DNA of 64,000 nucleotides from Candidatus Eiseniibacteriota bacterium (GCA_043809585.1 JBDROZ010000111.1:50320-114319); one strand, 5' to 3'. Shown: positions 2,568 to 63,397, counted from the first letter of the stretch. Program-made: numbers and translations. Notes: a model not told the origin generated them from the sequence alone.

Positions 2568-3589
2568 ACGTGCGCCTCCTGGAACCGGGGGAGGAGGCGG
2601 CGTGGAACGCGTACGTCGAGGGCCGGCGGGAGAGCCTTCTCGGCCATCGGGCCGAATGGCTCTCCATTCTTCGAGACTCCCTCGGACACGACCCCCGCCC
2701 CCTCGTCGCCATGGACGGCGAGGAGATCCGGGGCGTGCTCCCCCAAGTGATCGTGCCCGGCCTGATCGGCGGCCGCGCCCTCGTCTCCCTCCCCTGGCTC
2801 GACGGGGCAGGCCCCCTCGGAGACGACGACGAGACGGTCCTCGCCCTGCTTCGGGCCTCCCGGGAGACGGGGATCCGCGAGCGCTGCGCCTATCTGGAAA
2901 TCCGGGCGCTCCGGGAGTGGCCCGAGCCCCGGCCGGTGAGGAAGGAAAAGGTCCTCATGGTGCTCCCCCTCCGGGAAGAGACCGCCCTCTGGAAATCCTT
3001 CTCCGCGAAGGTCCGGAATCAGGTCCGGAAGGCGGAGAAGGAGGGACTGACCGCCGGCGCCGGGGGCCCGGAGCTTCTCGGCGATTTCTACTCCGTCTTC
3101 TGCCGCAACATGCGTGACATCGGAGTCCCCGTCTGGGGGAAGGAGTTCTTCGCCGCCATGATGGACCGGCTCGGAGAGCGCTCCCGGATCGTCATCGTGC
3201 GGAGCGGAGGCAGGCCGGTGGGAGGGGGGATCCTTCTCTTCCACCGGGAGAGCGCGGTGGTGCCGAGCGCCTCGTCCCTCCGGAGCCACTTTTCCCTCTG
3301 CCCGAACCACCTGCTCTATTGGACCGCCCTCAAGGCGGCCGCCCATGGGGGGGCCCTCCGTTTCGACTTCGGCCGCTCCACGCCCGGGAGCGGAACGTGG
3401 CGCTTCAAGAAGCAGTGGGGGGCGGAGGAGGTGCCCTGCTTCTGGCACTACGCCCTCCTCCGGGGGGGAAGGATCCCGGAGAAGAGCACCGAGGGCCCGA
3501 AGCTCCGCCTCGCCGTCGCCGCCTGGAAGCGGATGCCCCTCTTCCTCGCGAACCGGATCGGTCCCGCGCTCGTGCGGAGGATCCCGTGA
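2564..3589 (+). CDS. FemAB-family / GNAT-fold acyltransferase (PEP-CTERM-locus FemAB-like)
   Basis: About 341 aa, start ATG 2564 in an ATGA overlap. The sequence pattern (MNVRLLEPGEEAAWNAYV... FDFGRSTPGSGTWRFKKQWGA) is typical of FemAB-like proteins found in EPS loci. Confidence 0.55.
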   Translation: MNVRLLEPGEEAAWNAYVEGRRESLLGHRAEWLSILRDSLGHDPRPLVAMDGEEIRGVLPQVIVPGLIGGRALVSLPWLDGAGPLGDDDETVLALLRASRETGIRERCAYLEIRALREWPEPRPVRKEKVLMVLPLREETALWKSFSAKVRNQVRKAEKEGLTAGAGGPELLGDFYSVFCRNMRDIGVPVWGKEFFAAMMDRLGERSRIVIVRSGGRPVGGGILLFHRESAVVPSASSLRSHFSLCPNHLLYWTALKAAAHGGALRFDFGRSTPGSGTWRFKKQWGAEEVPCFWHYALLRGGRIPEKSTEGPKLRLAVAAWKRMPLFLANRIGPALVRRIP

Positions 3590-19957: not shown

Positions 19958-22900
19958 ATGGTCCCCCCTGGGCATCGCGGCACGGCCTTTGCTGTTAGGC
20001 TGGGTCCGGGGGGGAGGTCCCCCGGTTTCGTCCCGAAACTCCATCACCCCAGACACGACGGGCCGCCCCCGCGGCCGGAACCGAGAGTGATCTTGAAGGT
20101 ACGGCCCATCGCCGGAACTCGTCTTCGTCTCCGCGGAGGGCCCGCGGGGATCCTGGTTCTTCTTCTCGCGGCGCCGGCGGCCCTCGGGGCCGACCTGACC
20201 CTTCTCTGGACCGCTCCCGCGGAGAACGGCGCGGCCGGGGGGCCCGCAACGGCCTACGATCTGCGCTATTCGAACGCGCCCGTCGGGGGGGACACGCTCG
20301 GGTGGTGGAACGGCGCCGTTCCCGTGCCGAACGAACCGGTCCCCGGCACGCCGGGGTCGCCCCAATCGCTCGTCGTGAGCGGCCTCGACCCGGCGACCAC
20401 CTACTACTTCGCCCTCCGCTCCGCCGACGAGGAGGCGAACGTCTCCCCCTTCTCCAACGTGTTCGAATTCGCCACCGGGGACACCACGGGCGGGGACCCG
20501 GGCGGGCTCGTCATCAGCGGCGTGACCGTGGACTCGATCGGCGGCGATTCGGCTTTCGTCGCGTGGTCGACGAATCGTGACGCACGGGGGTTGGTTCGGT
20601 ACGGACCGGACGGCGGATACGGGAGCGAGACCGAAACGGAGACCGATTCGACGATCCTCCACGGCGTCTGGATCGGCGGACTCGGAGAAGGAACCCTCGT
20701 CCACTACCAGGTCGTCTCCTTCGCGGGGGCCGACCGTGACTCCACCGCCGACGCCGCTTTCACCACCGCCGACCCGCCCCCGGCCCGGCCGGCCGGGTTC
20801 GACCACGTGGACGGGGAAGGGGAGGTGACACTTCTCTGGCAGGCGAACCAGGAGCCCGACCTCGACGGCTACCGGGTCTACTGGGAGGCGAGGGACCGCG
20901 CCGACGACGGCCGCCTTCTGGACGAGGACTTCGAGACGAGTCCCGTAGGGGCCCCGCCTTCCGGGTGGGCCATCGAGACGGACGCCGGGACCCCGGCGAG
21001 CGTCTTCTTCGTGCAGAGCGATCCGGGGCGGGGCCGCGCCGTGCGTGCGACCCCGAACGGAGCGGGCTACCGGGCCCGCTATGCCCCTTCGCCGTCCCCC
21101 GCCTGGGGGGACGTGGAGTGGCGCGGCGCCTTCCGTTTCTCCACCGGTGCCGGGGCGGACGTGGAGATCCGGAGGGGGGGAGGTGCCGCCTATCGGATCG
21201 GCTTCGCTCCGGACGGAGCCCCCCGGGCGGAGAAAGTCGGCGGCGGATCGCTCGTCTCCCTCGGCTCCCTCCCCACCTCGTGCGGCCCCGGCGGGTGGGT
21301 GCGATTCCGGATCAGCGCGTGGAACCGCCCCGAAGGCGTCCTTCTCCACGCCCTCTTCTGGCCCGAGGGAGAGGCCGAGCCGCTCCGCCCGACCCTGGCG
21401 GTTCTCGACACGGGGAGCCTCCCGGCCGCCTCCGTAGCCCTTCGCGCCTCCGGAACCGGGGAGGTCTGGTTCGACGATCTCGCGGTGACCGCCCTTCCCC
21501 CTTCCACGAACGAGGTCGATCGCTCCCTGTTCGTTCAATGGACCCACGGGGGCCTTTCCGCCGACTCCTCCTATCACTACCGATTGGAAGCGGTCGACGG
21601 CAACGGCTCCGCAGGCCTCCCCGCCGGGCCTCTCATCGGATACCCCGCCGGCGAAGAGGGGACGGACGTCACGCCCCCCGCGGCCATCGCCGATCTGGCG
21701 GCCCTTCCCGGAAACGGCTTCGGCGAGGCGCGGCTCACGTGGACCGCCACGGGGGACGACTCGACCTCGGGCCGGGCCCTCTCGTACGATCTCCGGTGGT
21801 CCCCCCAGCCGATCAATCCGGAGGTGTGGCCCGCGGGCACCACGAAGCTCTACACCGGAACCCCCCTTCCTGCCGGAGGAGGGGAGACCTACACCTTCGC
21901 CGGCCTGCCGGCGGGCTCTACGGTCTGGTTCGCCCTGACCGCCCAGGACGACGGGGGCAACGAATCGGATCTCTCGAACATCGTCCCCCTCGACCTTCCC
22001 GCCGACACGATCGCGCCGGTCCTCACGAACATCCGGACCGAGAACGTCACGGACGGAAGCGCCGAGGTCGCATGGACGACGAACGAGTCGTCGGACGGCG
22101 AGGTCCGGTACGGTCTGACCGACTCGTACGAGATCGGACTGGTGGGGGAGGAATCGGGAGGGACGTCTCACCGGGTCACGCTCTCCGGCCTCGCGCCGGT
22201 GACGCTCTATCACTACCGCGTCCGCTCCACCGACGGGGCGGGCAACGCATCCGAGTCGGGAGACAGGACCTTCGTCACCGCCGAGGAGGCGGTCGGCGTC
22301 CCCGTCATCTCTCATCTGAACATCGCCGCCGTCTCGGACACGGAAGCGGTGATCGAGTTCATCACCGACATCTCCGCCGTCGGATCGATCGACTACGGGG
22401 CGGACACGACCTACGGGGAGACGGTCTCCGAATCGGCGTACGGAACCGCCCACTCCCTCCGGCTCGCCCCGCTGACCGCGGGCGCGGACTACCACTTCCG
22501 GGCCCGGGCGACCGGCGAGGAAGGGGGGACGGCGGTCACGGAGGATCAGACGCTCACCACCTCGTTCGAGCAGGATCCTCCGCTCTTCAGCCAGATCGAG
22601 GCGACCGAGATCGGCCCGTCGGGGGTCACCATCCGGTGGCGCACGAACGAGGGGGCGACGGAGCGGGTCGAGTACGGGCCGACCGGGAGCTACGGAAGCT
22701 GGTCGGCCGGGGACACGACGTACACCTACGACCACGAGGAGCGCCTCGACGGCCTCGCGTCCTCCACCACGTTCCACTACCGCGTCCACGGGCGGGACCG
22801 GTACGGCAACCGCGCCTTCTCCGAGGACCGGACATTCACGACCGCCGCCGCGGGCGACCACCGGGCCCCGCTGCTCGCGGGGGTCGAAGCGGACAGCGTC

Positions 22901-25192
22901 TGGCCCGGGGGGGCGAGAATCGTCTGGACATCGGACGAGCCGGCGGACGGCCAGGTCGAGTACGGGCAGGATCTCCCCTACGACCGGGCGACTCCGCTCG
23001 ACGAGACCCTCGCCGAAGGGCACGCCGTCACGATCCGGGGCCTCGAACCGTCGACGACGTACCACTTCCGGGTCCTCTCCCGGGACGGGAGCGGAAATCT
23101 CGCGGGATCGGGGGACCGCACCTTCACGACGACGCCGCCGGACGACCTCGACTCCCCGGGAATCTACGGGATCGTCCTCGAGGGCCCGACGGCCTCGGGA
23201 ATCACGGTCGCGTGGCGAACCGACCGGGCGGCCTACGGCCAGGTCGAGTACGGCCCCGCCCCGGGGTTCGGCTCCCTTTCGGCGCCGGAGACGGCGGCCG
23301 ACACGCTCCATTCGATCCGCATCGAGGGACTGACCGCGGGGGTGACCTTCCGGCTGCGGGTGCTCGCATGGGCAGAGGGGGGACCGGTCGTCCTCTCGCC
23401 GGACACGATCTTCGTTCTCGACGGCGGAGGGGACGTCGACCCTCCGGGAATCGTGGCCATCGCCGTCACCGGGGTCGGCGAATCGTCGGCGACCATCGAA
23501 TGGACCACCGACGAGCCGGCGGAGGGGCAGATCGAATACGGGAGCGGCGACGGGAGCGGTTACGACCGGGCGACGCCGTGGGACGGTTCCCTCGGGACGG
23601 CCCACACGGCGCGCATCGAAGGACTCGCGCCCCGGACGACTTACCGATTTCGGCTCTTCGCGAGAGACGGCGCCGGCAACCCGGTCTATTCGGAAGAGCA
23701 CGGGTTCGCGACGACGGGCGCCGTGGACTCGCTCCCGCCGACGGTGAGCGGCCTGACCATCGCCGATCTCGGCGACGGCGTTCGTCTCGCCTGGAGCACC
23801 GACGAGGGGGCGTGGGGGCACGTGGACTACGGGCTCGACAGCACGCTCGGCCTCGAAACGGAGACCGGCCCGGGCCCCGGCGTGCTCCATCAATTCGACG
23901 TGATCGGCCTCGCGGCGGGCGTGCCGTTCTACTTCCGGGCCGCGGCCGAGGACGCCGCGGGCAACGCCGGATACTCGGAGATCCTCGCCCACACGGTGGG
24001 GGCGGCGCCGGACACGACGTCGCCGGTCTTCACCGGAGAGGTCGTCGTCCAACCGGGCGTCCGGGATGCGACAATCCTCTGGGCCACGGAGGGGCCTTGC
24101 CGGGGAACGCTGGAGTACGGCACCGACCCGCACGACCTCGATCACTCCGTCTCGGAGCCGGACTACACCCTCGTCCACCGGATCGTCGTCGGCGGCCTGG
24201 AGCCGGAGACCACTTATCACTTCCGCCTCCGCTGCGTCGACCTTTCGGGGTACGAGACGGTCCGGAGCGGCGAGTCCTTCACCACGGAAAGGGAGACATC
24301 GGCGTTCCCCCCCACGATCGTCTCGCTGACTCTCTCGAACCGGACCCCCGAGGGCCTCCACATCGCCTGGGAGACGGACCGGCAGGCGGTGGGACAGGTC
24401 GAGTTCGGGGAAGGGGAGCAGATGGCCCATGCCACGGCCATGTCCTCGGTCTTCACGAGGGAGCATATCGACCGGCTCGGCGGACTGACGCCGGGAAAGG
24501 CATACACGTACCGGATCCGGGGGATGTCTCCCGAGGGGCTCTTCTTCTTCTCCGCGCCCGACACGTTCCGCACGCCCGAGGACCGGACCGGGCCGCCACC
24601 GCCTCACATGAAGGAGGCGAGCGAGATCGACGAGGGGATTCAGATCGCCTGGCGGCCGGAGGAGGGGGAGGTCGCTCATTCGCTGGCCCTCCACCGGCGC
24701 TTCCTGCCGGGGGGGCAGTGGAAGACGATCTGGGTCGCCACGGGCCGGGAGACGACGTACGTGGACCCGGTCGCGCCCGTGGACCTCACGGGAGTCGAGA
24801 AGGCCCAATACTACCTGGAGGCTTTCGACGCCTACGGGAACGGCACGTCCGGGGACACGATCGACGTGTTGATCTTAATGCACGCGGCCGAAGGGGTCCC
24901 CCTCTTTCGACTGCTCCCGAACCGGCCGAATCCCTTCAACCCGACCACGACGATCCCCTTCGAGCTCCCTTCCTCCCCTTCCGAACCGCACCTGGTGACG
25001 ATCACGGTCTACAACGTGGCGGGGGAACGGCTGAAGGTGCTTCTCGACAAGATCCTCACGGCGGGAACCAAGAGCCAGACAACCTGGGACGGCACGGACT
25101 GGCGCGGAGAACCGGTCGCGTCGGGCGTCTACTACTACCGCTTCACCGCCGGCTCCTACTCCGAGACGAAACGGATGACCCTGATTCGGTAG
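19958..25192 (+). CDS. Giant secreted protein: signal peptide, about 14 tandem FN3-like beta-sandwich modules, lectin-like insert, C-terminal T9SS sorting domain
   Basis: Repeated modules of about 100 aa share the pattern W.T.E...G.VEYG....YG......H...L.GL.P.TTYH[FY]RV.S.DGAGN. The C-terminus (LLPNRPNPFNPTTTIPF...GVYYYRF...KRMTLIR) matches the T9SS Por_Secre_tail. The true start may be the GTG/TTG near 20087-20093, just before the signal peptide. Confidence 0.8.
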   Translation: MVPPGHRGTAFAVRLGPGGRSPGFVPKLHHPRHDGPPPRPEPRVILKVRPIAGTRLRLRGGPAGILVLLLAAPAALGADLTLLWTAPAENGAAGGPATAYDLRYSNAPVGGDTLGWWNGAVPVPNEPVPGTPGSPQSLVVSGLDPATTYYFALRSADEEANVSPFSNVFEFATGDTTGGDPGGLVISGVTVDSIGGDSAFVAWSTNRDARGLVRYGPDGGYGSETETETDSTILHGVWIGGLGEGTLVHYQVVSFAGADRDSTADAAFTTADPPPARPAGFDHVDGEGEVTLLWQANQEPDLDGYRVYWEARDRADDGRLLDEDFETSPVGAPPSGWAIETDAGTPASVFFVQSDPGRGRAVRATPNGAGYRARYAPSPSPAWGDVEWRGAFRFSTGAGADVEIRRGGGAAYRIGFAPDGAPRAEKVGGGSLVSLGSLPTSCGPGGWVRFRISAWNRPEGVLLHALFWPEGEAEPLRPTLAVLDTGSLPAASVALRASGTGEVWFDDLAVTALPPSTNEVDRSLFVQWTHGGLSADSSYHYRLEAVDGNGSAGLPAGPLIGYPAGEEGTDVTPPAAIADLAALPGNGFGEARLTWTATGDDSTSGRALSYDLRWSPQPINPEVWPAGTTKLYTGTPLPAGGGETYTFAGLPAGSTVWFALTAQDDGGNESDLSNIVPLDLPADTIAPVLTNIRTENVTDGSAEVAWTTNESSDGEVRYGLTDSYEIGLVGEESGGTSHRVTLSGLAPVTLYHYRVRSTDGAGNASESGDRTFVTAEEAVGVPVISHLNIAAVSDTEAVIEFITDISAVGSIDYGADTTYGETVSESAYGTAHSLRLAPLTAGADYHFRARATGEEGGTAVTEDQTLTTSFEQDPPLFSQIEATEIGPSGVTIRWRTNEGATERVEYGPTGSYGSWSAGDTTYTYDHEERLDGLASSTTFHYRVHGRDRYGNRAFSEDRTFTTAAAGDHRAPLLAGVEADSVWPGGARIVWTSDEPADGQVEYGQDLPYDRATPLDETLAEGHAVTIRGLEPSTTYHFRVLSRDGSGNLAGSGDRTFTTTPPDDLDSPGIYGIVLEGPTASGITVAWRTDRAAYGQVEYGPAPGFGSLSAPETAADTLHSIRIEGLTAGVTFRLRVLAWAEGGPVVLSPDTIFVLDGGGDVDPPGIVAIAVTGVGESSATIEWTTDEPAEGQIEYGSGDGSGYDRATPWDGSLGTAHTARIEGLAPRTTYRFRLFARDGAGNPVYSEEHGFATTGAVDSLPPTVSGLTIADLGDGVRLAWSTDEGAWGHVDYGLDSTLGLETETGPGPGVLHQFDVIGLAAGVPFYFRAAAEDAAGNAGYSEILAHTVGAAPDTTSPVFTGEVVVQPGVRDATILWATEGPCRGTLEYGTDPHDLDHSVSEPDYTLVHRIVVGGLEPETTYHFRLRCVDLSGYETVRSGESFTTERETSAFPPTIVSLTLSNRTPEGLHIAWETDRQAVGQVEFGEGEQMAHATAMSSVFTREHIDRLGGLTPGKAYTYRIRGMSPEGLFFFSAPDTFRTPEDRTGPPPPHMKEASEIDEGIQIAWRPEEGEVAHSLALHRRFLPGGQWKTIWVATGRETTYVDPVAPVDLTGVEKAQYYLEAFDAYGNGTSGDTIDVLILMHAAEGVPLFRLLPNRPNPFNPTTTIPFELPSSPSEPHLVTITVYNVAGERLKVLLDKILTAGTKSQTTWDGTDWRGEPVASGVYYYRFTAGSYSETKRMTLIR

Positions 25193-28492: not shown

Positions 28493-28619
28493 TCCTCCTA
28501 CCTCGCCGATTCCCGACCTCGAATTGTACCGATTCCGGGGCCCCAATCCAACAGGGAATGGAGGGAGGCATTACCCGTCCGCGCCCATCCGCTCCGCAAT
28601 GTGTGGGAGACCGGTTCCG

Positions 28620-28665
28620 CCCGGGCCCTTCGATACGGACCTTCGGTCCTACTCAGGACAGGCCT
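28620..28665. repeat. Repeat family A copy (ccttcgatacgg...cctactcaggac structured element)
   Basis: Shares about 40 bp with the elements at 54181-54245 (inverted) and 58504-58545. Confidence 0.6.
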
Positions 28666-28689
28666 CCGACCGTTGCCCACATCGGCGGG

Positions 28690-28860
28690 GCGTGGGAGCG
28701 GCTCCGGGAGGGATGAAGGGGCAGACTTGAACGCTCGTCGTGCTGCGGGAGTCAACCCTCCCATTCTCCGGGCTCGTAGAGGAGGCGCCCAGGAAGACGG
28801 CAACAACTCCCCGGTTATGCCCCCATCCCTCCCGGAGCCGCTCCCCCCGCCTCGCCGTCC
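28690..28860. repeat. Repeat family C copy (about 170 bp)
   Basis: About 85-90% identical to 42185-42350 (cggctccgggagggatg...gaacgctcgtcgtgctgcgggag...cctcccattctccgg...ctcgtagaggaggcg...). Confidence 0.65.
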
Positions 28861-28888
28861 TCCGGACGGATGCGGAATCCGTACCGCG

Positions 28889-29075
28889 CTCATGGCTTCG
28901 GAGTGAGCGGGGGACTGGTTCCGCCCGAGGCTCCGGCTCGGAAGACATCAGTCCGACTTCAGCGGACCCTGTCCCCCTCCGAGGGGGTACCGCACGCGAA
29001 GATCACCATTCCAGGGTGCAGAGGAGGAGTCGGAGGAGAACGGAACCCGCCGGCTCCGTCTACTCTGCAGGCACC
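28889..29075. repeat. Repeat family B copy (about 150-190 bp structured element)
   Basis: The core cttcggagtgagcgggggactggttccgcccgaggctccggctcggaagaca ... attccagggtgcagaggagga recurs at 55181-55335 (same orientation) and 41893-42075 (inverted). Confidence 0.65.
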
Positions 29076-31290: not shown

Positions 31291-31602
31291 GATACGAATC
31301 CTCCGCCGGGCATACCGGCCGCCACGAATTGTACCAGTAGGGCCTTGAGGATACACGAATTTCCTACTGCGTCTTCGGTTCGCGGGATGGAAGGCCTCCT
31401 TTCCTTCGCCGCTTCCTCAACGGGGCTAGGGGCCCCGCCTCCGGGAGCGGCTCGTCCAAGTCGGCCTTTCACCACGCGAACCAAACCCTCGTGACGGAAG
31501 TTCATGTATCCTCCAGGCCCGGCCTCCCGGACAGCGGCGATGTGTTTTCCTACGTACAGGAACATGAGTCCACAATTGATGACAAGCCCGGACAGGAGTA
31601 AG

Positions 31603-33592: not shown

Positions 33593-35281
33593 CTAGTGCA
33601 CGAGCAGCATCTTGCGGGTCGCCGTTCCCTCATCCGTGACAAGGCGGTAGAAGTAGGTCCCGGAGGGGGCCGGAGCGCCGTTTCCGGCGCGGCCGTCCCA
33701 AACCGCCTCGTGTTCCCCCGCGCCCAGGGTGCCCCGGCGAAGCGTCCGGACGAGCCGTCCCGTCACGTCGTAGATCGAGAGATTCCCATCTCCGCGGCGA
33801 TCCAATGTGAAGCGGATCGTCGTCGCGGGGTTGAACGGGTTCGGCGTGTTCGGATAGAGGGCGTGCCGGGTCGGGATGTCACCGTCCCCCGCCGCCTCGG
33901 CGACGCTCGTGGAGACGAGGGGCTCCGCGAGCTCCCCGATCGTCGCGATCGACGCTTTCGTCACCTTCATGCCGAAGTTCCCGTCGTTCAGGTCCGTCCT
34001 GTCGCAGGAGCGGTGGTAGCACGGGTACTGCCCGTACTCGGTCTCGATGATCTCGATCGCCGGATACCCCTGCTCGATGAAGGAGACGTGGTCGGAGCCG
34101 GAGTAGCTGTAGGTGATCTGGGTGCCGAGATCGGTGTACTCGGCAGAGGCGTCGGCCCAGAGATTCCGGAGCCAGGAGTAGGAGCCGACGGACCCGATAT
34201 TCACCTGGTAGAGCTGGTCGTGCCACGCCACCATGTCGCAGTTTACGACTCCGATGATGTTCTCGCCCGCCGCCGCGGCCGCCTGGGCGTAGTTCCTCGA
34301 CCCCTTCAGGCCCTGCTCCTCGCCGGTCCAGGCGCAGAACTTGATGGTGGAGCGAAAACCGTAGTCCTTCATGATCTCGGCGGCGGTGAGCACCACGGAC
34401 GTGCCGCTCGCGTTGTCGTTCGCCCCCGGGGCATCGAGGGAGCCGTTGATATTGGTCGCGTCCATGTGGCCGCAGAGAATGACCACGTTCCCCGGCGTTT
34501 CCGTCCCCGGCAGGGTGGCGATGACATTCCTGGCGACGGTGTTGTTGAACGTGAAGGTGTCGAACTCCACTTCCGTGAATCCCATGGCGAGGAACTGTTC
34601 GTAAACGTAGCGCTCCGCCGTGTCGCAGTCGGCGTGGAAAGTGTTCCGCGAGAGAATCGTGTCCGGCACGCCCCCGATCAGGACGCCGTTGTTCCCGGCC
34701 AGGTTCCCGATCCATTCCATGAAGCCCGCCGAGTCGGCCCGGGCGACCATCTGGTCGATGAGGGGGCCGAAGGTCGTGACCGGCGCGCGGAGGTGCTCCG
34801 GCGGGCCATCGAGGACGGGGCGCCGGATCGGCTCGGAGCGCAATGTCCGTTTTTCGAGATCGACGTACGGCTCCCCTTCGGGCAGGAGGCCGGAGGCGGA
34901 CACGATCGAGTTCCACCCGTCGCTCCAGACCAGCTTCGAGACGGACCCCCCTTCGAGCCGGGCAGGATCGATCAGCCCGGGGATGGAGACCGGGCCCCGG
35001 CCGCGGACCATCCAGATCGCCTCTCCCTCGGGAGCGGAGAAGGGCCCTTCGACCCGGAAGCCTGCATCCTGGAGGAGGCCGGCGGAAAAACCCTCCCGGA
35101 GCACGAGAATCTCCGGCGTCATGCCGTAAACGTCCGCCCCCGAGTCCCACGCCCCTTCCAAAGTCCGGTCCCCGTCCAGGGGGACCACCCAGAGCGACGG
35201 GGCCGGGGTCGCGTCGCCCGCGTCGCCCGCGTGGGGGATGAAGAAGAGCAGGGCCACGATGAGCGGAATCCGGCGGTTCAT
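33593..35281 (-). CDS. M28-family zinc aminopeptidase with T9SS C-terminal sorting domain
   Basis: HMDATN...GANDNASG M28 metal-binding signature. C-terminal NTPNPFNPATTIRF...GTYFYRL...RKMLLVH. Signal peptide; AGGAG RBS. Confidence 0.85.
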   Translation of the reverse strand: MNRRIPLIVALLFFIPHAGDAGDATPAPSLWVVPLDGDRTLEGAWDSGADVYGMTPEILVLREGFSAGLLQDAGFRVEGPFSAPEGEAIWMVRGRGPVSIPGLIDPARLEGGSVSKLVWSDGWNSIVSASGLLPEGEPYVDLEKRTLRSEPIRRPVLDGPPEHLRAPVTTFGPLIDQMVARADSAGFMEWIGNLAGNNGVLIGGVPDTILSRNTFHADCDTAERYVYEQFLAMGFTEVEFDTFTFNNTVARNVIATLPGTETPGNVVILCGHMDATNINGSLDAPGANDNASGTSVVLTAAEIMKDYGFRSTIKFCAWTGEEQGLKGSRNYAQAAAAAGENIIGVVNCDMVAWHDQLYQVNIGSVGSYSWLRNLWADASAEYTDLGTQITYSYSGSDHVSFIEQGYPAIEIIETEYGQYPCYHRSCDRTDLNDGNFGMKVTKASIATIGELAEPLVSTSVAEAAGDGDIPTRHALYPNTPNPFNPATTIRFTLDRRGDGNLSIYDVTGRLVRTLRRGTLGAGEHEAVWDGRAGNGAPAPSGTYFYRLVTDEGTATRKMLLVH

Positions 35282-35409: not shown

Positions 35410-37065
35410 TCATCGGAGGAGGGTCATTTTTCGGGTCTCGCTCAGCTCCCCGGCGGCTACCCGGCAGAAGTAGACGCCCGACGGGGCTTCGGCGCCCTCT
35501 TCGTCCCGGCCGTCCCAGGGGATCTCGTGCAGCCCCGCTTCGAGGGGGCCGCGGTGAACCGTCCTCACCCGGCGCCCCGAGATGTCGAACACGGTGACCA
35601 GGGCGTCGGAAGGGCGGGCCAGGTCGAAGCGGATCGTGGTCGCCGGATTGAACGGATTCGGCCGGTTCTGGGCCACCCGGCCCGGCGCCGGCGCCCCTTC
35701 CTCCACGACGATGGTGGTCTCATCGATCGGCTCGGCGAGATGGGCCACCGTGGCGAGGCACGCCCGGACGATTTCGGCGCCGTAGACCCCCTTGTTCAGT
35801 CCCGTGGTGTCGCAGGTGGAGTGATAGCAGGGGTAGGTGTCCCAGTTCCGTTCGATGGCGAGGAAGCAGGGGAACCCCTCGTTCTGGAAGGGGACGTGAT
35901 CCGAGCCCCAGCTGTAGTAGTCGAGCCGGGTCCCGAGGGAGGTGTACTCCTGGCAGGCGTCGTTCATCAGCTGCATGAGCCACTCCCACGGATTCTCCCC
36001 CTCGATGATGAGTGCGTAGTGCGTTCCGTACCAGGCGACCATGTCGCAGATGACGACGCCGAGGATCGAGTCGCCCGCCGCCGCCGCCTGCTGGGCGTAG
36101 TGGGAGGAGCCGTGGAGCCCCTGTTCCTCGCCCGTGAAGGCGATCAGCTTGATGGTCGACTTGAACCGGTACTGGGAGAGCACCTCCGCCGCGGCGAGCA
36201 CCGCCGCCGTCCCGCTCGCGTTGTCATTCGCGCCGGGGGCGAGGGTATTGGGGATGGGCGAGGTCGAATCGAGGTGGCCGCCGAGGATGTAGATGCGATC
36301 CGGCGTCTCCTCGCCGACGATCGTGGCCACCACGTTACGTGCGCTCGTGCTCTGGAAGGTGTACGGATCGAATTCGACGCTGTCGATGCCCATGGCGAGG
36401 AACCGCTCGTAGACGTACCGCTCCGCCGTGTCGCACTGGGCGTTCTTGGTGTACCGGGTGGAGAAGGTGAAAGGCCCGCCGTCGATCGTGACCTGGTTCG
36501 CGCCGGCGAGGTCGCCGATCCACTGCATGATGTCCGTCGAGTCGATCTGGGCGGCCATCTCGTCCACCAGGGGCGGGAAGACCGTGGCGGCGCTCTTCTC
36601 GCGGGAAGGGGCCCGGTCGACCAGGGGCCGCCGGATCGGCCGCTCCCGGAGGACTTTCGCCGAGAGCCCATGCAGGTGGCCGGGCGCCTCTTCGGTGTGG
36701 ACGATCAGGTTCCGCCCGTCGGTCCAGAGAATGTGGAGATCCGGATCCGTCCTCTCCCCTCCGCGGGCGCCGAGGAACGCCGGGACCGACCGGCCTCGAG
36801 GCCGGAGCAGAGAGACGACGCCCCCTTGGGGCAGGTCGATGGGGCGGCTCACCCGGAAGCCGGCATCCTTCAGGCGGGCCGCGGAGGTCTCGTCGGCCAC
36901 GATCAGGGCGTCCGGGAAACGGTCGAGCACCGCGGCCCCGGCGCTCCACGCGTCCCGCACCGTGCGCTCCCCGCCGAGCGGGGCGACCCAGAGGGTGGAA
37001 GGCGCGGCGGCGGAGAAGCCGGGAAGAAGCGCGAGCGCGAGAAGAAGGCGGACACGAGCTTTCAT
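35410..37065 (-). CDS. M28-family zinc aminopeptidase with T9SS C-terminal sorting domain (tandem paralog)
   Basis: Start MKARVRLLLALALLPG at 37065. HLDSTS...GANDNASG signature; C-terminal NRPNPFNPATTIRFDL...GVYFCRV...RKMTLLR. Confidence 0.85.
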   Translation of the reverse strand: MKARVRLLLALALLPGFSAAAPSTLWVAPLGGERTVRDAWSAGAAVLDRFPDALIVADETSAARLKDAGFRVSRPIDLPQGGVVSLLRPRGRSVPAFLGARGGERTDPDLHILWTDGRNLIVHTEEAPGHLHGLSAKVLRERPIRRPLVDRAPSREKSAATVFPPLVDEMAAQIDSTDIMQWIGDLAGANQVTIDGGPFTFSTRYTKNAQCDTAERYVYERFLAMGIDSVEFDPYTFQSTSARNVVATIVGEETPDRIYILGGHLDSTSPIPNTLAPGANDNASGTAAVLAAAEVLSQYRFKSTIKLIAFTGEEQGLHGSSHYAQQAAAAGDSILGVVICDMVAWYGTHYALIIEGENPWEWLMQLMNDACQEYTSLGTRLDYYSWGSDHVPFQNEGFPCFLAIERNWDTYPCYHSTCDTTGLNKGVYGAEIVRACLATVAHLAEPIDETTIVVEEGAPAPGRVAQNRPNPFNPATTIRFDLARPSDALVTVFDISGRRVRTVHRGPLEAGLHEIPWDGRDEEGAEAPSGVYFCRVAAGELSETRKMTLLR

Positions 37066-41892: not shown

Positions 41893-42350
41893 TGGGTGTG
41901 GTGCTCACCCCGAAGTGGCTATCTTCCTCGGACTCCTCTTCTGCACCCTGGAATGGTGATCTTCGTGTGCGGTATCCCCCCTGAGGGGGACAGGGTCCGC
42001 TGAGGTCAGACCGATATCTTCCGAGCCGGAGGCTCGGGCGGAACCAGTCCCCCGCTCACTCCGAAGCTGGTGGGCGAGGTTAGATTCCGGATATCCCGAA
42101 GTGGCTATCTTCCTCGGGCTCCTTTTCTGCACCCTGGAGCAGTCGTGTTCGCGCTCAGTATCCGTCCGGAGGGCGGTGGGGCGGGGGGACGGCTCCGGGA
42201 GGGATGCGGGTTAGACTAGGACGCTCGTCGTGCTGCGGGAGCAAATCCTCCCATTCTCCGGCCTCGTAGAGGAGGCGTTTCGGAAGGCGGCAACAGCTCC
42301 CCGGTGATGACCCGATCCCTCCCGGAGCCGTCTCCCCGTCCCGCCGATGA
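41893..42350. repeat. Composite repeat locus: family B (inverted, plus a partial tandem duplicate) followed by family C
   Basis: 41930-42075 is the reverse complement of 28889-29020. 42085-42150 is a partial direct duplicate of 41893-41950. 42185-42350 matches 28690-28860. Confidence 0.65.
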
Positions 42351-43206
42351 TCGTGGCCGGGGCAGGGGTCCGCGTCTTGTTCCGGTTCGATGTGACTGAA
42401 GCGGTTTCCGCGGGTGCCCGCGGTTCGGGGATGGGGGCGTGGCGAGGGAGTGAGCCGGGTGGCGAGGGCCGCTCTCGACGAGGGTGCTCCCGGAGGCGGG
42501 GCCATGGCCCCGTCGAGGAAGCGCCCGAAGGAAGAGCGAGGCCGCAGCCCCCGGATCGCTTCCGGAGTAGGCCCCATCCCCGAATCGCGGGCAAAAAGAA
42601 ATCGGGGGACCCGAAGATCCCCCGATTATCCTCGGCTGACCGCCGTAACCTCACGCTCCCCCACTGAGGAAATCGACGGTACTGGCGCCGAGGAATCCCA
42701 AGGCCGGTCTCCCGTTCGGCCTTCGGTACATAACATAGAGCAACCTATGTGCCATCCCACAGAGCCTGCCCTTTTTAGCAGGAGCCGTTATTTTAACTCA
42801 TTTAATGACAGATAGATGTGATTCTCGAGGCCTGACCGTGAACAGTCTCCCCGGCCTCATAGAAGAGACAACGGAGGTTGGCATTTTGCGGGTTTTTCCC
42901 CTGGTCATCTGGTAACCGCCTACTAAACAGGAGGTTCCGGCCGTCAACCTGGGTCGGCAGGAGTGGTGTCGGATTGGCAAACATTGTTGACGGTTTTTCT
43001 GAAAACGTACGAAATGGTGCAACGAGCACCCTCATTTCGGCTCTCCGGGTGGGTTGCCCCGGGGGGTGGGGTAAATGGCGCGCGGGAGGCAACGAAGATG
43101 GCTCGCCTGGATCATGCATGATCCAGCCGAGGGCTTCGGCTTCGAGATGGAGAGGGGCTTCGTCATCTTCCCACTGAAGACCGGTGGCCTCCCCGCAGCG
43201 CTTCGA

Positions 43207-44265
43207 CTATTTCCGGATCGTGAACGAGTCGATGAGGGCACCGGACGTGTCGATCACGTCGGCGTGGAAAACCGGTCCGTCCACGGAGCAGCGGACGTAG
43301 AAGTGGCGGTCGTTCGTGCCGGCCGCGTAGGCGCCTTCGGGGACGCCTTCGGGGTGCGGGAAGGGAAGTCCGATCCGGGCGCCCCGCCCGATCCGGCCGC
43401 CTCCTCCTCCGACGGTGAGATAGACGGTCGAGCTGTCCGTTTCCGTCCAGAGCGCGCCGTTCCGGACCGGCGTGGTTCGCGTGTAGCAGTGTTGATCCCC
43501 GCTGAAGAAGACGTCCACGCCCGCGTCCTCGATGAGGCGGCAGATCGAACCCTCGCCGGACCGCTCCGAGTCGATGTTCTTCCGCCCGCTGTACTGCTCG
43601 GCGCCGTAATAGGCGCGGTGGCCGAAACCGAAGGTCCACACCGCCCCGGGCTCCCGCGACGCCAAATCCTCTTCGAGCCATGTCCGCTGGGCCGACCCGG
43701 GCGTGTTGATGCCACCGTTCGGGAGGCAGAAGCGATAGCCCATCATGTCGGAGTCGGGGGCGTCCGAGTTGTTCTCGACGAAGAAGAAATGGGATCCTCG
43801 ATGGTCGAAGGAATACCAGCCGTCGCCCAGCACGGGAAAGAAGGACCGAGCGTAGGAGTAGTCGACGTAGTCGCCCTCGTGGTTGCCGAGGACCGGGTAG
43901 AAGGCGATGGACGAGTCGAGGAGAGAAACGTAGTGGAGAAACGTGTCGGCCGTGGCCTGACCCGCGACGTCGTAGCTCGGGCCGATGATCCAGTCGCCGC
44001 AGTGGACGAGAAAGTCGGGACGGTCGGCGTTCACCTGCTCGATGATGCGGCGGAAGACCGCGCGGCCGGTATGAGGGGTGCCGCCCGTGTGGGTGTCGCT
44101 CACGACGGCAAAGGTGAATTGACTCGCGTGCGCCCTGTCGGTCGGCAGAAGGCAGCCGGCAAGAACGAGAGCGCCCACCAGGACAGAGGCGCCCTGCCTA
44201 CTCCGAACGAGATAGGATAGCGTCACTTCCCTGATCACTTCGAAACCGACTTCGAGCCGTGGCAT
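43207..44265 (-). CDS. Calcineurin-like metallophosphoesterase (secreted)
   Basis: AVVSDTHTG, HCGDWI and GNHE motifs; N-terminal hydrophobic signal. The start may be internal to the ORF. Confidence 0.75.
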   Translation of the reverse strand: MPRLEVGFEVIREVTLSYLVRSRQGASVLVGALVLAGCLLPTDRAHASQFTFAVVSDTHTGGTPHTGRAVFRRIIEQVNADRPDFLVHCGDWIIGPSYDVAGQATADTFLHYVSLLDSSIAFYPVLGNHEGDYVDYSYARSFFPVLGDGWYSFDHRGSHFFFVENNSDAPDSDMMGYRFCLPNGGINTPGSAQRTWLEEDLASREPGAVWTFGFGHRAYYGAEQYSGRKNIDSERSGEGSICRLIEDAGVDVFFSGDQHCYTRTTPVRNGALWTETDSSTVYLTVGGGGGRIGRGARIGLPFPHPEGVPEGAYAAGTNDRHFYVRCSVDGPVFHADVIDTSGALIDSFTIRK

Positions 44266-54159: not shown

Positions 54160-54180
54160 GCTAATAGTCGTACGGGCGGG

Positions 54181-54245
54181 TCCTTCGATACACGGCTCCC
54201 GGAGCCTGTCTTGAGTAGGACCGAAGGTCCGTATCGAAGGGGCCA
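54181..54245. repeat. Repeat family A copy (about 65-nt hairpin element closed by ccttcgatac / gtatcgaagg)
   Basis: Nested stems ggctcc/ggagcc and ggacc/ggtcc sit inside a 10-bp terminal inverted repeat, immediately 3' of the gene ending at 54159. Confidence 0.6.
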
Positions 54246-54567
54246 CGGCACTCAGGACGAACGGGGAGAATGTCGCGCGGCACGAACGGAGCATACGACC
54301 AAAGACCCGGGAAGGCGAACGCCATTCCCTCCCCTCCGAGCGGCAGTCCTTGTTGATCATTCACCACAACGGGCGGGTGGCCGGGGCAGGGGTCCGGGAG
54401 AAGCGCAGCCACCAGCGCATGAGGAATCCGAATAGGATAGACCAGAAACAGCAGTACGGACGGACCGGCTCGGCATTCACGCAGAGCCATGACGATGGTG
54501 GCGAGCATTGCACCGGACAGCCCCGGACAGGACCCGCCCGTACTACCACCCGGCAGAGGATGCCGTG

Positions 54568-55113
54568 CTACCGACCTCCTAACAGCAGCCCGATGGTAAT
54601 GACGTAGAAATTGGCGTCCGTGTCGCCCGAACCGGGGAACTCCTCGAACTCGTAGTCGAGGAAGACGTACCGGATGTCCGCGACGATCAGGGCCGACTGA
54701 CCCAACGGAAGCTCCACGCCCCCGCCGAAGTGATAGCCGAACTGGTTGTCCGTCTGGCTCTCGAGCACGAGGTCCTCGTCGTAGTCGATGGTGACGTTGT
54801 ACCAGCCGCCGCCGGCGAGGCCGTACACCACAGGCAGCGGATAGACGAGGGCGGTCGCCATGACCGGCCAGCTCTTCACCGTCACCTGATCATCGGCGTA
54901 CTTCTCCTGCCGGTAGTTGATCGAGCCCTCGACGCCGAAAAACTTCGAGAGATGGATCCGGAGGGCGCCGCCGAACATGAACTCTCCTTCGTCCGCGTCG
55001 GTCGCCTTGTAGTAACCGACCTGCGGGCCGACTCCTGTGGCCTCCGAGGCCTGAGGAACGAGGAGGAGGGTGAGCAGAGGGAGCAAGGCGACGCGGGAGA
55101 CTCTCCGAGACAT
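54568..55113 (-). CDS. OmpA-like / porin-family outer-membrane beta-barrel protein
   Basis: Start MSRRVSRVALLPLLTLLLVPQASEA at 55113 with an AAGGAGG RBS. Alternating amphipathic strands; C-terminal aromatic-rich strands. Confidence 0.6.
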   Translation of the reverse strand: MSRRVSRVALLPLLTLLLVPQASEATGVGPQVGYYKATDADEGEFMFGGALRIHLSKFFGVEGSINYRQEKYADDQVTVKSWPVMATALVYPLPVVYGLAGGGWYNVTIDYDEDLVLESQTDNQFGYHFGGGVELPLGQSALIVADIRYVFLDYEFEEFPGSGDTDANFYVITIGLLLGGR

Positions 55114-55180: not shown

Positions 55181-55335
55181 TTGCACCGATCGCAGAACTT
55201 CGGAGTGAGCGGGGGACTGGTCCCGCCCGAGCCTCCGGCTCGGAAGACAACGGACACGCCTCGGCGGGCCCTGTCCCCCGAATGTGATTCCGCGACCCCG
55301 CGGGCCATTACCTGCATTCCAGGGTGCAGAAGAGG
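55181..55335. repeat. Repeat family B copy
   Basis: cttcggagtgagcgggggactggtcccgcccgagcctccggctcggaagaca ... attccagggtgcagaagagga, co-oriented with the 28889 copy. Confidence 0.65.
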
Positions 55336-55489
55336 ACTTCAAGGAAGACTTCACCTTGGAAAGAGTAGACCCACTCCAGAGTGCAGATAAGGGGTTCGAG
55401 GACCGCGGCCACGCGCCGAGGAAGATACCTCTTCGCGGATCGAGGCCCCTGCATTACACTCGGGGGCGGTTCGTTCATGGAGGTTTGCC

Positions 55490-58474: not shown

Positions 58475-58503
58475 GAGAGTGTTGATGGCTCTTCCACCCG
58501 GCG

Positions 58504-58840
58504 CCCTTCGATACGGATTCCGCTTCGCGGATCCTACTCAGGACGAACGGGTGGGGGGAACAGGACAAGACAACCGTTCGCCCTGAGTAGACTCGACCGT
58601 TCGACCCCGCGCCCCGGCGGGTCGAAGGAAGAGGCGTATCGAAGGGCCGTCCGCACCATCCGGTCCCGTATTCCTCGGGCTTGGGAGATCGTGCCCGGGG
58701 CGCATTCCTCGGGCTTGGAAGGTGGCGGGACGAACGGGTGGGGGGAACAGGACAAGACAACCGTTCGCCCTGAGTAGACTCGACCGTTCGACCCCGCGCC
58801 CCGGCGGGTCGAAGGAAGAGGCGTATCGAAGGGCCGTCCT
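58504..58840. repeat. Tandem perfect direct repeat (2 x about 112 bp, 75-bp spacer) plus a family-A-like 5' flank; highly structured
   Basis: 58541-58652 and 58728-58839 are identical. Nested stems: cccttcgatacg/cgtatcgaaggg, ctactcagg/cctgagtag, gaacgg/ccgttc, gaccc/gggtc. Confidence 0.7.
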
Positions 58841-58873
58841 CGTCATTCGGTCCGACTCACCGACGGAGGGAGT

Positions 58874-61327: not shown

Positions 61328-63397
61328 ATGAGAGTGTCGGTCCGGGGGACTTTGGTCCTCCTTCTCCTGTTCGCCGCGGGGCATGCCTCCGGCGACGAGC
61401 CCCGTTCCCCCCGGGAGGTCGCTCCCCTCTCTCTTTCACGAATTCACGAACTCGACGGCCGGCCCGGGGCGCCCCCGGCGGGAGCCGTGCGGTGGCGCCA
61501 GGCCCTTCATGAGGTCCGGCTCGGCGCGGGGGAGGGGAGCGGGCTTCCTGCGGTTTCGGATGTGCGGCGAAGGGGGGAAGAGCGCGCGCGGCAGGGTGTC
61601 GTCCCGATCGCCGTCCTGGACGTTCGGGTCGAGCGAGAGGGGGGGGAGGAGCCTGTCTTCGCGGCGGCGGCGATGGTGGAGCACACCTACCGGGGGGAGG
61701 ACGTCCGCTTCGTCCTCGACCGGGAGCGGTACCTGTCGGCCGGCGATGGGCCGGGGAGAATCTCCATCGATTTCGACGACGGACGGGGCTTCCGGATGAT
61801 CGCTCCGGACGAGCCGGTCGCCGTTTATTATGGAAGCGCCGGGCGAAAGACGGTCCGCCTGATGGCGCGAAGCGCGGACGGCCTCTACAGGCACGGGTCG
61901 TTCCCCTTCGTCGTGAAGGCGCTCCAGGCGCCCCTCCCCGACGACACGCTCCAGGTCACGGCGACGGAGCCGTACCTCGGCCAGTTCGGAACGGGGGAGG
62001 CGTACGTCTACCTCAGCGACATCCACTCGACGCTGACCGATCCGGTCGTCGTTGTCGAGGGATTCGATCTCGATAACACGCTGAATTGGGACGAGCTGTA
62101 CGAGCTCCTGAACCAGCAGAACCTTGTCGAGGATCTGCGGGCCGAGGGGTACGACGCGGTGGTCCTGAACTTCACCGAGGCGACCGATTACATGCAGCGG
62201 AACGCCTTCGTGATCACCTCCCTGCTCGAGCAGGTACAGGGGATGATCGCGCCGGACCGGGACTACGCTCTGGCCGGCGCGAGCATGGGCGGTCTCGCCT
62301 CCCGGTACGCCCTCACCTGGATGGAAAACCAGGGGATCCCCCACCGGGCGCGCACGGTCCTCTCCTTCGACGCCCCCCACAAAGGGGCGAACATTCCCCT
62401 CGGCGTGCAGTACTGGGTCTCTTTCTTCTCGGGGCTGTCGGCGGAGGCGGAGTACCTGCTCTCCCGCCTCGACAGCCCGGCGGCGCGGCAGCTGCTCGTC
62501 TACCACCACACGGATCCGCCCGGCCCGTCGGGTGAGACCGACCCCCTCCGGACCGCGTTCGATGCCGAACTCGCCTCGCTGGGCGATTGGCCGGCTGCGC
62601 CCCGCAGGGTGTCGATCGTGAACGGGAGCGGATCGGGGATGAACCAAGGTTACGGAGCGGGCGCCCAGATCGTCGACTACGAGTACAGTTCGCTCTTCAT
62701 CGCGATCACGGGAAATGTCTGGGCCGTTCCGGACGGCGGCCCTTCGACGATCTTCGACGGCTACATACGGATCATCATCCCTACCGGCGATCTGACGGTC
62801 ACCGTGAGCGGCACGAAGCCGTACGACAACGCGCCGGGGGGCTTCCGGAACACCATGGCGGACATGGACTCGGTGACGGCGCCCTACGGCGACATCGTCG
62901 CCCTTCACCCGGCCCATGCATTCATCCCGACCGTGAGCGCCCTCGCTCTGGACACGGAGGATCTCTTCTATGACATCGCGGGCGATCCGAACCTGCTCTC
63001 GATGACGCCTTTCGACGCGGTCTACTTCCCGGTGGAAAACCAGGAGCACGTGACGATCACGCCGGAGAGCGCCGAGTGGTTCTTGGACGAGATCCGGCGC
63101 GACGTGTCGACGGATCTCGCCGGCTCGGCCCCGGGGCGGACGGTGCTCATGCCGAACCGGCCGAACCCGTTCAACCCGTCGACCCTGATCCGGTTCGATC
63201 TCCGGGAGCCGTCACGGGTGACGCTGAAAGTGTACGACGCTGTGGGCCGGGAGGTGTCGACCCTCGTAAGCGGCGACCGGCCCGCGGGCGCCCACGAAGC
63301 GCGCTTCGACGGGGGAAACGTCGCGAGCGGCGTCTACTTCGTCCGCCTCGAAGCGGGAGAGGATCGCTCCGTCCGGAAGATCGTTCTGGTACGATGA
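61328..63397 (+). CDS. Secreted alpha/beta-hydrolase (lipase/esterase-like, GASMGG nucleophile elbow) with T9SS C-terminal sorting domain
   Basis: Signal peptide MRVSVRGTLVLLLLFAAGHASG. GxSxG motif GASMGG. C-terminus LMPNRPNPFNPSTLIRFDL...GVYFVRL...RKIVLVR. Confidence 0.7.
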   Translation: MRVSVRGTLVLLLLFAAGHASGDEPRSPREVAPLSLSRIHELDGRPGAPPAGAVRWRQALHEVRLGAGEGSGLPAVSDVRRRGEERARQGVVPIAVLDVRVEREGGEEPVFAAAAMVEHTYRGEDVRFVLDRERYLSAGDGPGRISIDFDDGRGFRMIAPDEPVAVYYGSAGRKTVRLMARSADGLYRHGSFPFVVKALQAPLPDDTLQVTATEPYLGQFGTGEAYVYLSDIHSTLTDPVVVVEGFDLDNTLNWDELYELLNQQNLVEDLRAEGYDAVVLNFTEATDYMQRNAFVITSLLEQVQGMIAPDRDYALAGASMGGLASRYALTWMENQGIPHRARTVLSFDAPHKGANIPLGVQYWVSFFSGLSAEAEYLLSRLDSPAARQLLVYHHTDPPGPSGETDPLRTAFDAELASLGDWPAAPRRVSIVNGSGSGMNQGYGAGAQIVDYEYSSLFIAITGNVWAVPDGGPSTIFDGYIRIIIPTGDLTVTVSGTKPYDNAPGGFRNTMADMDSVTAPYGDIVALHPAHAFIPTVSALALDTEDLFYDIAGDPNLLSMTPFDAVYFPVENQEHVTITPESAEWFLDEIRRDVSTDLAGSAPGRTVLMPNRPNPFNPSTLIRFDLREPSRVTLKVYDAVGREVSTLVSGDRPAGAHEARFDGGNVASGVYFVRLEAGEDRSVRKIVLVR

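Follow-up and report, generated by a model that had tools for sequence, protein, structure and literature searches.

What are the short, hairpin-forming repeats, here called B and C, that recur in the spacers of an uncultured bacterium? The window that we analyzed, a stretch of 64 kb, comes from a metagenome-assembled genome (MAG) of “Candidatus Eisenbacteria,” an uncultured phylum represented by MAGs only. Such repeats could be genes for a structured RNA, leaders of the genes next to them, or mobile or recombinogenic DNA, and a first-pass annotation made from the sequence alone had favored the last of these. Our analysis indicates that B and C are most likely interspersed repeats like REP/BIME, BOX, or Correia elements and not a new housekeeping RNA.

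Organization of the B and C units

Repeat and motif searches bear out the placement of B and C at three intergenic loci, in the orientations first given for them. The 20-mer GGAGTGAGCGGGGGACTGGT of the B core occurs exactly three times in the window, at 28900 (+), 42062 (-), and 55202 (+), against a shuffle expectation of 0.00. A second motif, the box TCCAGGGTGCAGAAGAGGA, occurs four times with at most one mismatch, at 29010 (+), 41952 (-), 42138 (-), and 55318 (+), against an expectation of 0.01; both counts are far above those of shuffles. A weaker fifth box at 55375 is the second box of the third B copy (B3). Locus 1 lies between the stop codon of a gene for a 505-aa protein (29060, minus strand) and engB (minus strand), locus 2 lies upstream of ispH (minus strand), and the third locus separates two divergent genes. 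Every copy of B or C is located between open reading frames (ORFs), and the adjoining genes, namely, engB, ispH, an outer-membrane-protein (OMP) gene, and a GH92 gene, are functionally unrelated. B1 and B2 share 92% identity over 143 nt, and B3 is 79 to 87% identical to either of them. The repeat features of the three loci, together with those of two further families (A and D), are as follows.

28591-28682, plus strand: degenerate B-like core (GTGGGAGACCGGTTCCGCCCGGGCC) around a family A unit (28623-28665), found by repeat search and nhmmer
28683-28857, plus strand: C1, hairpin head of about 175 nt, 85% identical to C2 over 175 nt
28858-28895, plus strand: tail after C1 and leader of B1, TCCTCCGGACGGAT, then GCGGAATCC..., with CCTCCGGACGGAT in common with the C2 flank
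28896-29041, plus strand: B1, found by repeat and motif searches
Within B1, plus strand: B1 5' repeat, CTTCGGAGTGAGC
28909-28977, plus strand: B1 core hairpin
29008-29029, plus strand: B1 box
29029-29041, plus strand: B1 3' repeat, degenerate, GTCGGAGGAGAAC
31393-31448, plus strand: second copy of module D, upstream of a PEGA-domain gene
41903-42066, minus strand: B2, full unit directly upstream of ispH
41915-41903, minus strand: B2 3' repeat, CTTCGGGGTGAGC
41954-41933, minus strand: B2 box
42066-42054, minus strand: B2 5' repeat
42067-42101, minus strand: leader between the C2-tail unit and B2, CTTCGGGATATCCGGAATCTAACCTCGCCCACCAG
42095-42173, minus strand: B-type tail with box (one mismatch) on C2
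42174-42346, plus strand: C2, hairpin head, interior in the same absolute orientation as that of C1
42486-42543, minus strand: module D in the ispH spacer, 86% identical to its second copy over 59 nt
55198-55445, plus strand: B3, between the divergent OMP and GH92 genes
55211-55279, plus strand: B3 core hairpin
55316-55337, plus strand: B3 box 1
55373-55394, plus strand: B3 box 2
55418-55429, plus strand: B3 late motif, GAGGAAGATACC
End of B3, plus strand: degenerate, CTTCGCGGATCGAGG

A B unit consists, in order, of a weakly conserved leader, CTTCGGAGTGAGC, the core hairpin, and a tail of about 80 nt; in all three leaders, CGGAAT stands at a fixed distance from CTTCGG. The three B cores align without gaps over 84 columns. 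Their first 52 nt, already recognized as a conserved core in the first-pass annotation, are invariant except for a Y, an S, and one C/T near the end, and the 20 nt that follow are variable. The core hairpin (about 70 nt) has a 14-bp stem, P1 (GGGGGAC.GG.YCCGC / GCGGR.CC.GUCCCCC), which encloses an inner hairpin of 7 bp, P2 (CCGAGCC/GGCUCGG), and the variable 20-nt loop. The tail holds the box (ATTCCAGGGTGCAGARGAGGAG) and a small hairpin, CCGAGGAAGATAGCCACTTCGGG. Although B had been described as self-complementary and consistent with a stable structure, the z scores of the entire unit against shuffles range from +0.5 to -2.2, and the core hairpin, which at -1.6 to -3.2 is only slightly better than shuffles, is the one part that forms. 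P1 contains a single compensatory pair, at the Y/R position (U-A in B1 and B2, C-G in B3), which is not significant for three sequences (159 of 500 shuffles equal it). At the third locus, previously thought to carry B alone, B is indeed found, but it reaches to about 55445 and has two boxes.

Direct repeats of 11 to 13 nt, similar to CTTCGGRGTGAGC, bracket B and have the same sequence at every copy: B1 stands between TTCGGAGTGAG and GTCGGAG-GAG, the latter followed by AAC, and B2 stands between CTTCGGAGTGAGC and CTTCGGGGTGAGC. The repeat is missing at one empty orthologous site. These repeats look like a part of the element and not like a duplicated target, so that B is bracketed but has no clean target-site duplication, and C has none at either copy (C1 is flanked by ...CACAT and TCCTC..., and C2 is flanked by ...GGAGGG and ATGATC...). 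Terminal inverted repeats are absent from B.

Of the two, C is the one with strong structure. Its near-perfect closing stem of about 40 bp, a terminal inverted repeat with arms of 33 to 40 nt that are 88 to 89% complementary, surrounds a nonpalindromic interior of about 95 nt. The minimum free energy of C1 is -113.6 kcal/mol, with z scores of -7.2 on the plus strand and -6.9 on the minus strand, and z is about -7 for C on either strand. Between the stems of the two C sequences there are two compensatory pairs and five one-sided differences, all five of which give G.U on the plus strand and none of which gives A.C. This wobble asymmetry hints at an RNA-level constraint, with a two-sided P value of about 0.06 (not significant), and is confounded by an overall excess of C<->T over G<->A differences (10 versus 5). 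Assignment of C to a strand from its wobble pairs was dropped in view of the C<->T excess and of a GC skew whose sign differs between the loci. Over the window, GC skew is weak and changes sign near 32 kb (from -0.03 to +0.04), a change to which gene orientation may contribute.

B and C had been taken for two independent families placed side by side, with a partial duplicate of B at locus 2. The tails lead to a different picture. On the minus strand, locus 2 reads C2, tail, leader, B2, and ispH. The supposed duplicate (42173-42095) matches the B2 tail at 81% identity over 79 nt and belongs, as a B-type tail, to a unit headed by C. This B2-like tail extends as far as the C arm, which puts C in the place of the B core hairpin, in front of the same tail. 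At locus 1, the first 13 nt of the tail (CCTCCGGACGGAT) come directly after C1 and are followed by B1. So B (about 70 nt) and C (about 175 nt) are alternative hairpin heads on one type of tail. The C arms also resemble P1 of B (GCGGGGGAC.GG.TCCG), a short similarity that may serve as a lead only. CCTCCGGACGGAT is found on the 3' side of C1 and on the 5' side of C2. Since the two interiors are in direct orientation while this tail sequence lies on opposite sides, the C interior has opposite orientations with respect to the tail at the two loci; arm and flank are inverted between them. Box modules number 0, 1, or 2 per unit and are doubled in B3 and at the start of one contig of a close relative (L028; see below).

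The B-like core upstream of C1 gave an nhmmer E value of 0.015 with the B core and 9.5e-11 with family A, which it surrounds. Family A has the form CCCTTCGATACG, a variable hairpin, and CTACTCAGGRC, and is REP/REPIN-like in having CTAC/GTAG beside the hairpin. It occurs at 58501-58653 and 58758-58840, as singlets at 28623-28665 (+) and 54248-54199 (-), and at positions 3146-3298 of a relative's contig (L029). The inverted doublet of this family folds into a three-arm cloverleaf with a 12-bp closing stem (z, -6.2). It is kept in a relative's spacer between GH92 and the sodium:solute symporter gene (SSF) downstream of it, where the third arm is changed in sequence yet paired (z, -5.2); in another relative, family A is absent and the GH92-SSF spacer measures 10 nt. 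The family A region of the window includes a 126-nt tandem duplicate (58541-58666 and 58728-58853; 97% identity, 187 nt apart). Between a TPR-protein gene and the OMP gene, a spacer of about 400 nt (54160-54568) has no convincing ORF; it holds a family A unit closed by CCUUCGAUAC/GUAUCGAAGG, as well as a palindrome, GGCTCCGGGAGCC, that echoes the C-arm core. Module D contains GGGGCC(N2)GGCCCC and CCTCCGGGAGC.

Twenty other ORFs of the window, which were scanned with Pfam, are ordinary (glycosyltransferases, peptidases, sulfatases, TPR proteins, and purA), and among them there is no transposase, no RAYT (IS200/IS605-type Y1 transposase), and no recombinase. A 1,744-aa ORF (19958-25192) has eight tandem units with a period of 288 nt (about 96 aa, 62 to 80% identity) at 22060-24409, which are presumably repeated domains of the Ig or fibronectin type. 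Two M28 peptidase genes that lie side by side (33645-34832 and 35462-36640), paralogs with FlgD_ig tails, share 66% DNA identity over 1.2 kb, and their C-terminal sorting-domain sequence recurs at 24916-24999 and 63152-63203.

Distribution in relatives and sequence collections

Relatives were reached via protein homologues and contig look-ups, and about 60 kb of their contigs was read (L001, L002, and L026 to L029). For the window itself, IspH, GH92, and the 505-aa protein each have a single NCBI match at 100%, on a 127-kb contig. The closest relative comes from sample SRR16297628, with identities of 90% for IspH, 80% for GH92, and 65% for the 505-aa protein. In nhmmer searches, copies of B and C were confined to the window and this relative, with none in the more distant relatives, whose IspH proteins are 84% (L002) and 73% (L023) identical. 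In the 64 kb of the MAG and these 60 kb, we saw three to five copies of B and two of C. Copies outside the window exist on two contigs of the close relative, at the start of L001 and at both ends of L028.

The spacer upstream of ispH, first given as 460 bp, is in fact longer: about 1.35 kb separates ispH from the next protein gene. The contig of the close relative that carries ispH (L001) begins inside a B3-type tail, with the box 53 to 74 nt upstream of the ATG; in the window, the tail at this position is of the B1/B2 type. In the two more distant relatives (L002 and L023), only about 50 to 170 nt, without B or C, lie between the terminator of an sRNA-like sequence and ispH, versus about 730 nt in the window, filled by D, C, the tail, and B.

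Besides module D, the same spacer holds the window's version of this sRNA-like sequence (42754-42595, minus strand). It starts with an exact sigma-54 consensus, TGGCACATAGGTTGC (42754-42740), continues with about 125 nt of conserved noncoding sequence, and ends in a canonical terminator with a G+C stem and a U run (42627-42600). Conservation of the stretch is 83 to 90% in L002 (191-312) and L023 (9821-9956, with TTGGCACGCATGTTGCG before it); the 5' hairpin GAAGGCCGAACGGGAGACCGGCCUU is invariant, and Rfam has no match. We regard it as a candidate for an sRNA that depends on sigma-54 and is conserved in Eisenbacteria in front of ispH. The region between the metallophosphoesterase gene and this candidate (42600-43207) is gene free, with a G+C content of 50 to 58% (versus about 67%), no convincing ORF, and no Rfam hit.

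Downstream of the ortholog of the 505-aa gene, the close relative (L026) has CCTCCGGACGGAT, 10 nt, GCTTCGGAGTGAG followed by AAC, and the stop codon. The body of B1 is absent there, a single copy of the flanking repeat is kept, and a short C-like hairpin lacks the 95-nt interior. The AAC after GCTTCGGAGTGAG is the same as that after the 3' repeat of B1 in the window. This pattern fits either a deletion between the 11- to 13-nt direct repeats or an insertion that brought them along, as read from the two sequences.

The GH92 contig of the close relative (L028) begins at a double box, as in B3, and ends 46 nt into a B core that starts 6 nt past the stop codon of a Por_Secre_tail gene. The window ortholog of that gene (61328-63397) has no B after it; a decayed copy considered there (GCGGAATCC ... 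AGTGAGCG) was discarded, its local alignment being no better than those of shuffles. At the orthologous positions upstream of ispH and GH92, 21 of the 22 box positions are kept in this second species, although its proteins are only 80 to 90% identical. Such retention across species could reflect selection for function and not selfish spread. Tails abut the putative promoters of ispH and GH92. In three species, GTACACTCGGG occurs about 25 to 35 nt upstream of the GH92 start (window, 55456-55466; L028, 163-173; L029, 135-146); GTGACTGTC, common to L028 and L029, lies 16 nt further upstream, where the 3' end of B3 sits in the window. It is possible that the core promoter of GH92 was partly replaced by B3.

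Thus, presence and absence vary at orthologous sites (L002, L023, L026, and the end of L028), and the units are gained and lost at the DNA level between close relatives. Orthologous spacers that are empty or occupied by different elements speak for the mobile or recombinogenic DNA proposed at first. Because copies were found in the window and the close relative and not in the distant relatives, the B/C family is young and narrow, its sites gained and lost independently.

In the sequence collections scanned, B and C have no match beyond chance. At the gathering threshold, Rfam recovers only tRNA-Lys from the whole 64-kb window, and in E-value mode, the three loci give, on both strands, only subthreshold matches of the microRNA type and other chance matches; the microRNA-precursor matches mean a long hairpin and nothing more. 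The first comparison with RNase P RNA, tmRNA, and SRP RNA, which had found no housekeeping RNA, therefore stands. A scan of 185,579 species genomes (GTDB) with a degenerate B core returned 16 single chance hits in unrelated taxa of high G+C content (nhmmer E values of at least 0.0045). Scans for the box in JGI metagenomes and IMG/VR and for the C arm in IMG/VR gave chance matches or none, and no match in 596 Gb of GTDB species genomes, JGI metagenomes, and IMG/VR rose above chance. BLASTn of locus 1 against plasmid and phage records gave no hits. A spurious ORF of 99 aa, which spans the B core and C1 in reverse, was compared with 1.84 billion protein representatives in case other copies had been translated by gene callers; one marginal low-complexity hit resulted.

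Interpretation of the units

We consider it probable that B and C are head variants of a lineage-specific, non-autonomous, noncoding mosaic repeat that is interspersed between genes. Spread would be non-autonomous, by a transposase or recombinase acting in trans or by recombination or gene conversion between copies, and the bracketing direct repeats of B may allow deletion between them. Recognition by that machinery, or homogenization, might keep the 52-nt 5' part of B invariant and the cores of the C arms perfect. Effects on the host would be secondary, with hairpins in mRNAs acting, perhaps, as processing or stability elements.

A less probable explanation, unlikely but the strongest of the alternatives, is that B, C, or both are multicopy genes for structured small RNAs that act in trans or in cis, with the hairpin as a scaffold and the box as a functional single-stranded region. 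The reverse strand of the box, CUCCUCUUCUGCACCCUGGAAU, is anti-Shine-Dalgarno-like. An RNA would account for a 52-nt core that is invariant while the enclosed loop varies, for the U-A to C-G change in P1, for the two compensatory and five G.U-only changes (plus strand) in the C stem, and for the conservation of the box at orthologous sites in a second species; orientation independent of the neighbors is also what free-standing sRNA genes show. However, no promoter of the sigma-54 or sigma-70 type and no intrinsic terminator were found at any copy of B or C, yet the sRNA candidate in the ispH spacer has both. Furthermore, the folding energy of B is not clearly beyond that of shuffles, its covariation is not significant, the copies are absent from relatives at 73 to 84% IspH identity, B1 is convergent to the neighboring gene, and Rfam has no match. 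A role of B as a CsrA sponge was also considered and rejected: its roughly five GGA motifs are not clearly above expectation at this G+C content.

It is quite improbable that C is an inverton, in which a recombinase acting on the 33- to 40-bp inverted repeats would flip the 95-nt interior and so switch its content. Size and repeat geometry match those of known invertons, and the interior has opposite orientations relative to the flanking tail CCTCCGGACGGAT at the two loci, with the arms in place. However, the interior contains no promoter-like site on either strand, and the scanned ORFs include no recombinase gene. The close relative has a hairpin without the interior at the same place, and the interior is therefore not a conserved switch. 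Moreover, opposite states in a pair of paralogous copies do not amount to active switching, as independent insertion in either orientation would give the same data.

Equally improbable in our estimation is a broader reading of the conserved stem (GGGGGAC.GG.YCCG / CGGR.CC.GUCCCCC) as a scaffold whose loop accepts different cargo. The cargoes seen are the 20-nt loop of B, the 95-nt interior of C in either direction, and the REP-like unit at 28591-28682, and the close relative keeps the stem without cargo. If true, this would imply either a recombinase or mobile element by which DNA is inserted or flipped specifically inside hairpin loops or a scaffolded RNA family with exchangeable loops; to our knowledge, there is no account of either in this phylum.

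That B serves the downstream gene as a cis-regulatory leader, riboswitch, or attenuator has a very small probability. B2 and B3 do point toward ispH and GH92, with tails that end 40 to 60 nt before the start codons, and in B1 and B2 a hairpin, CCCCCUC(N)GGGGG, competes with P1 in the manner of an attenuator. However, the competing hairpin is missing in B3, B1 converges with its neighbor, B follows a stop codon in L028, and the downstream genes have unrelated functions. Moreover, L002 and L023 have no such element in front of ispH. Orientation and absence from orthologous spacers largely refute this reading, in agreement with the first-pass annotation, which had argued against a cis-regulatory leader from orientation.

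Finally, an artifact of assembly or binning is hardly credible: MAG contigs can be chimeric at repeats, but these copies differ by 8 to 21%, are embedded in syntenic gene order, and have related copies in independent assemblies from another sample.

These readings overlap to some extent, given that, by analogy, transcription of REP, BOX, and Correia elements and effects of theirs on expression are known. As an interspersed repeat, B/C is a new family of a well-known type of element, an ordinary genome feature in a new lineage that calls for no new mechanism. A full-text literature search returned no paper on interspersed repeats in Eisenbacteria, and B/C is their first description in this phylum. 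Logan contigs of the close relative stop inside B at three ends (the start of L001 and both ends of L028), as expected of a multicopy sequence, and the units probably break short-read assemblies. They also inflate spacers beside the essential genes engB and ispH. The units may be of use for strain typing, for improving MAG contiguity, and for finding the mobilizing enzyme. If they are transcribed, the 40-bp stem of C and the hairpins of B would act next to housekeeping genes as strong signals for processing or stability.

Comparison with known repeat systems

Invertons, such as the invertible promoters of Bacteroides, resemble C in having inverted repeats of 30 to 40 bp around a segment of about 100 bp and in the two orientations of that segment relative to a fixed flank. 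C differs in lacking a promoter and an adjacent recombinase, and its interior is absent in a close relative. Invertons switch within a population; for C, the opposite orientations are those of two paralogous copies relative to a shared flank.

REPINs, which are mobilized by RAYT transposases in Pseudomonas, are likewise hairpin units that appear to be mobile entities, with a lineage-specific distribution and rapid turnover. Unlike B and C, they consist of two inverted REPs of about 25 nt and a short spacer; nothing in them corresponds to the B/C tail, and the 20 window ORFs scanned include no RAYT.

C comes close to the miniature elements (MITEs) of bacteria, such as the Correia elements (NEMIS) of Neisseria: it is noncoding, measures 175 bp, occurs in spacers in either orientation, and could fold into a long hairpin once transcribed. 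Its long terminal inverted repeats are a MITE trait. However, neither copy of C has a target-site duplication, we saw C only twice, its arms are similar to the stem of the neighboring B family, and a relative has arms without an interior.

The BIME/REP clusters of Escherichia coli and other Enterobacteria are short, G+C-rich, imperfect palindromes between genes that form mosaics with other motifs, occur in both orientations, and vary between related genomes, all of which applies here; family A of the window, with GTAG/CTAC beside the hairpin and inverted doublets, adds to the likeness. They are not similar to B and C in sequence, and none of the ORFs scanned is a RAYT gene. With 70 nt (B) and 175 nt (C), the heads exceed the palindromes of these clusters (about 35 nt). 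B and C do not have the GTAG-headed palindrome of about 20 to 40 nt of REPs and REPINs, and their long nonpalindromic tail, with its conserved box of 22 nt, sets them apart.

BOX elements of Streptococcus pneumoniae (boxA-boxB(n)-boxC) are unrelated in sequence and belong to a different phylum, and they have terminal inverted repeats, formed by boxA and boxC, in contrast to the short direct repeats on either side of B. Both systems are noncoding, modular, and intergenic, have predicted stem-loops, lie near promoters, and have no known dedicated transposase; modules of BOX can be repeated or missing, and here the box module occurs 0, 1, or 2 times and the head is exchangeable. B/C units stand singly or head to tail, in either orientation, mixed with families A and D. 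Hence, they share with the BIME/BOX type an intergenic location, exchangeable and repeatable modules, and both orientations. Four short repeat families (A, B, C, and D) lie within the 64 kb, and such a density of short, modular, palindromic repeats is a hallmark of BIME/BOX-type mosaics.
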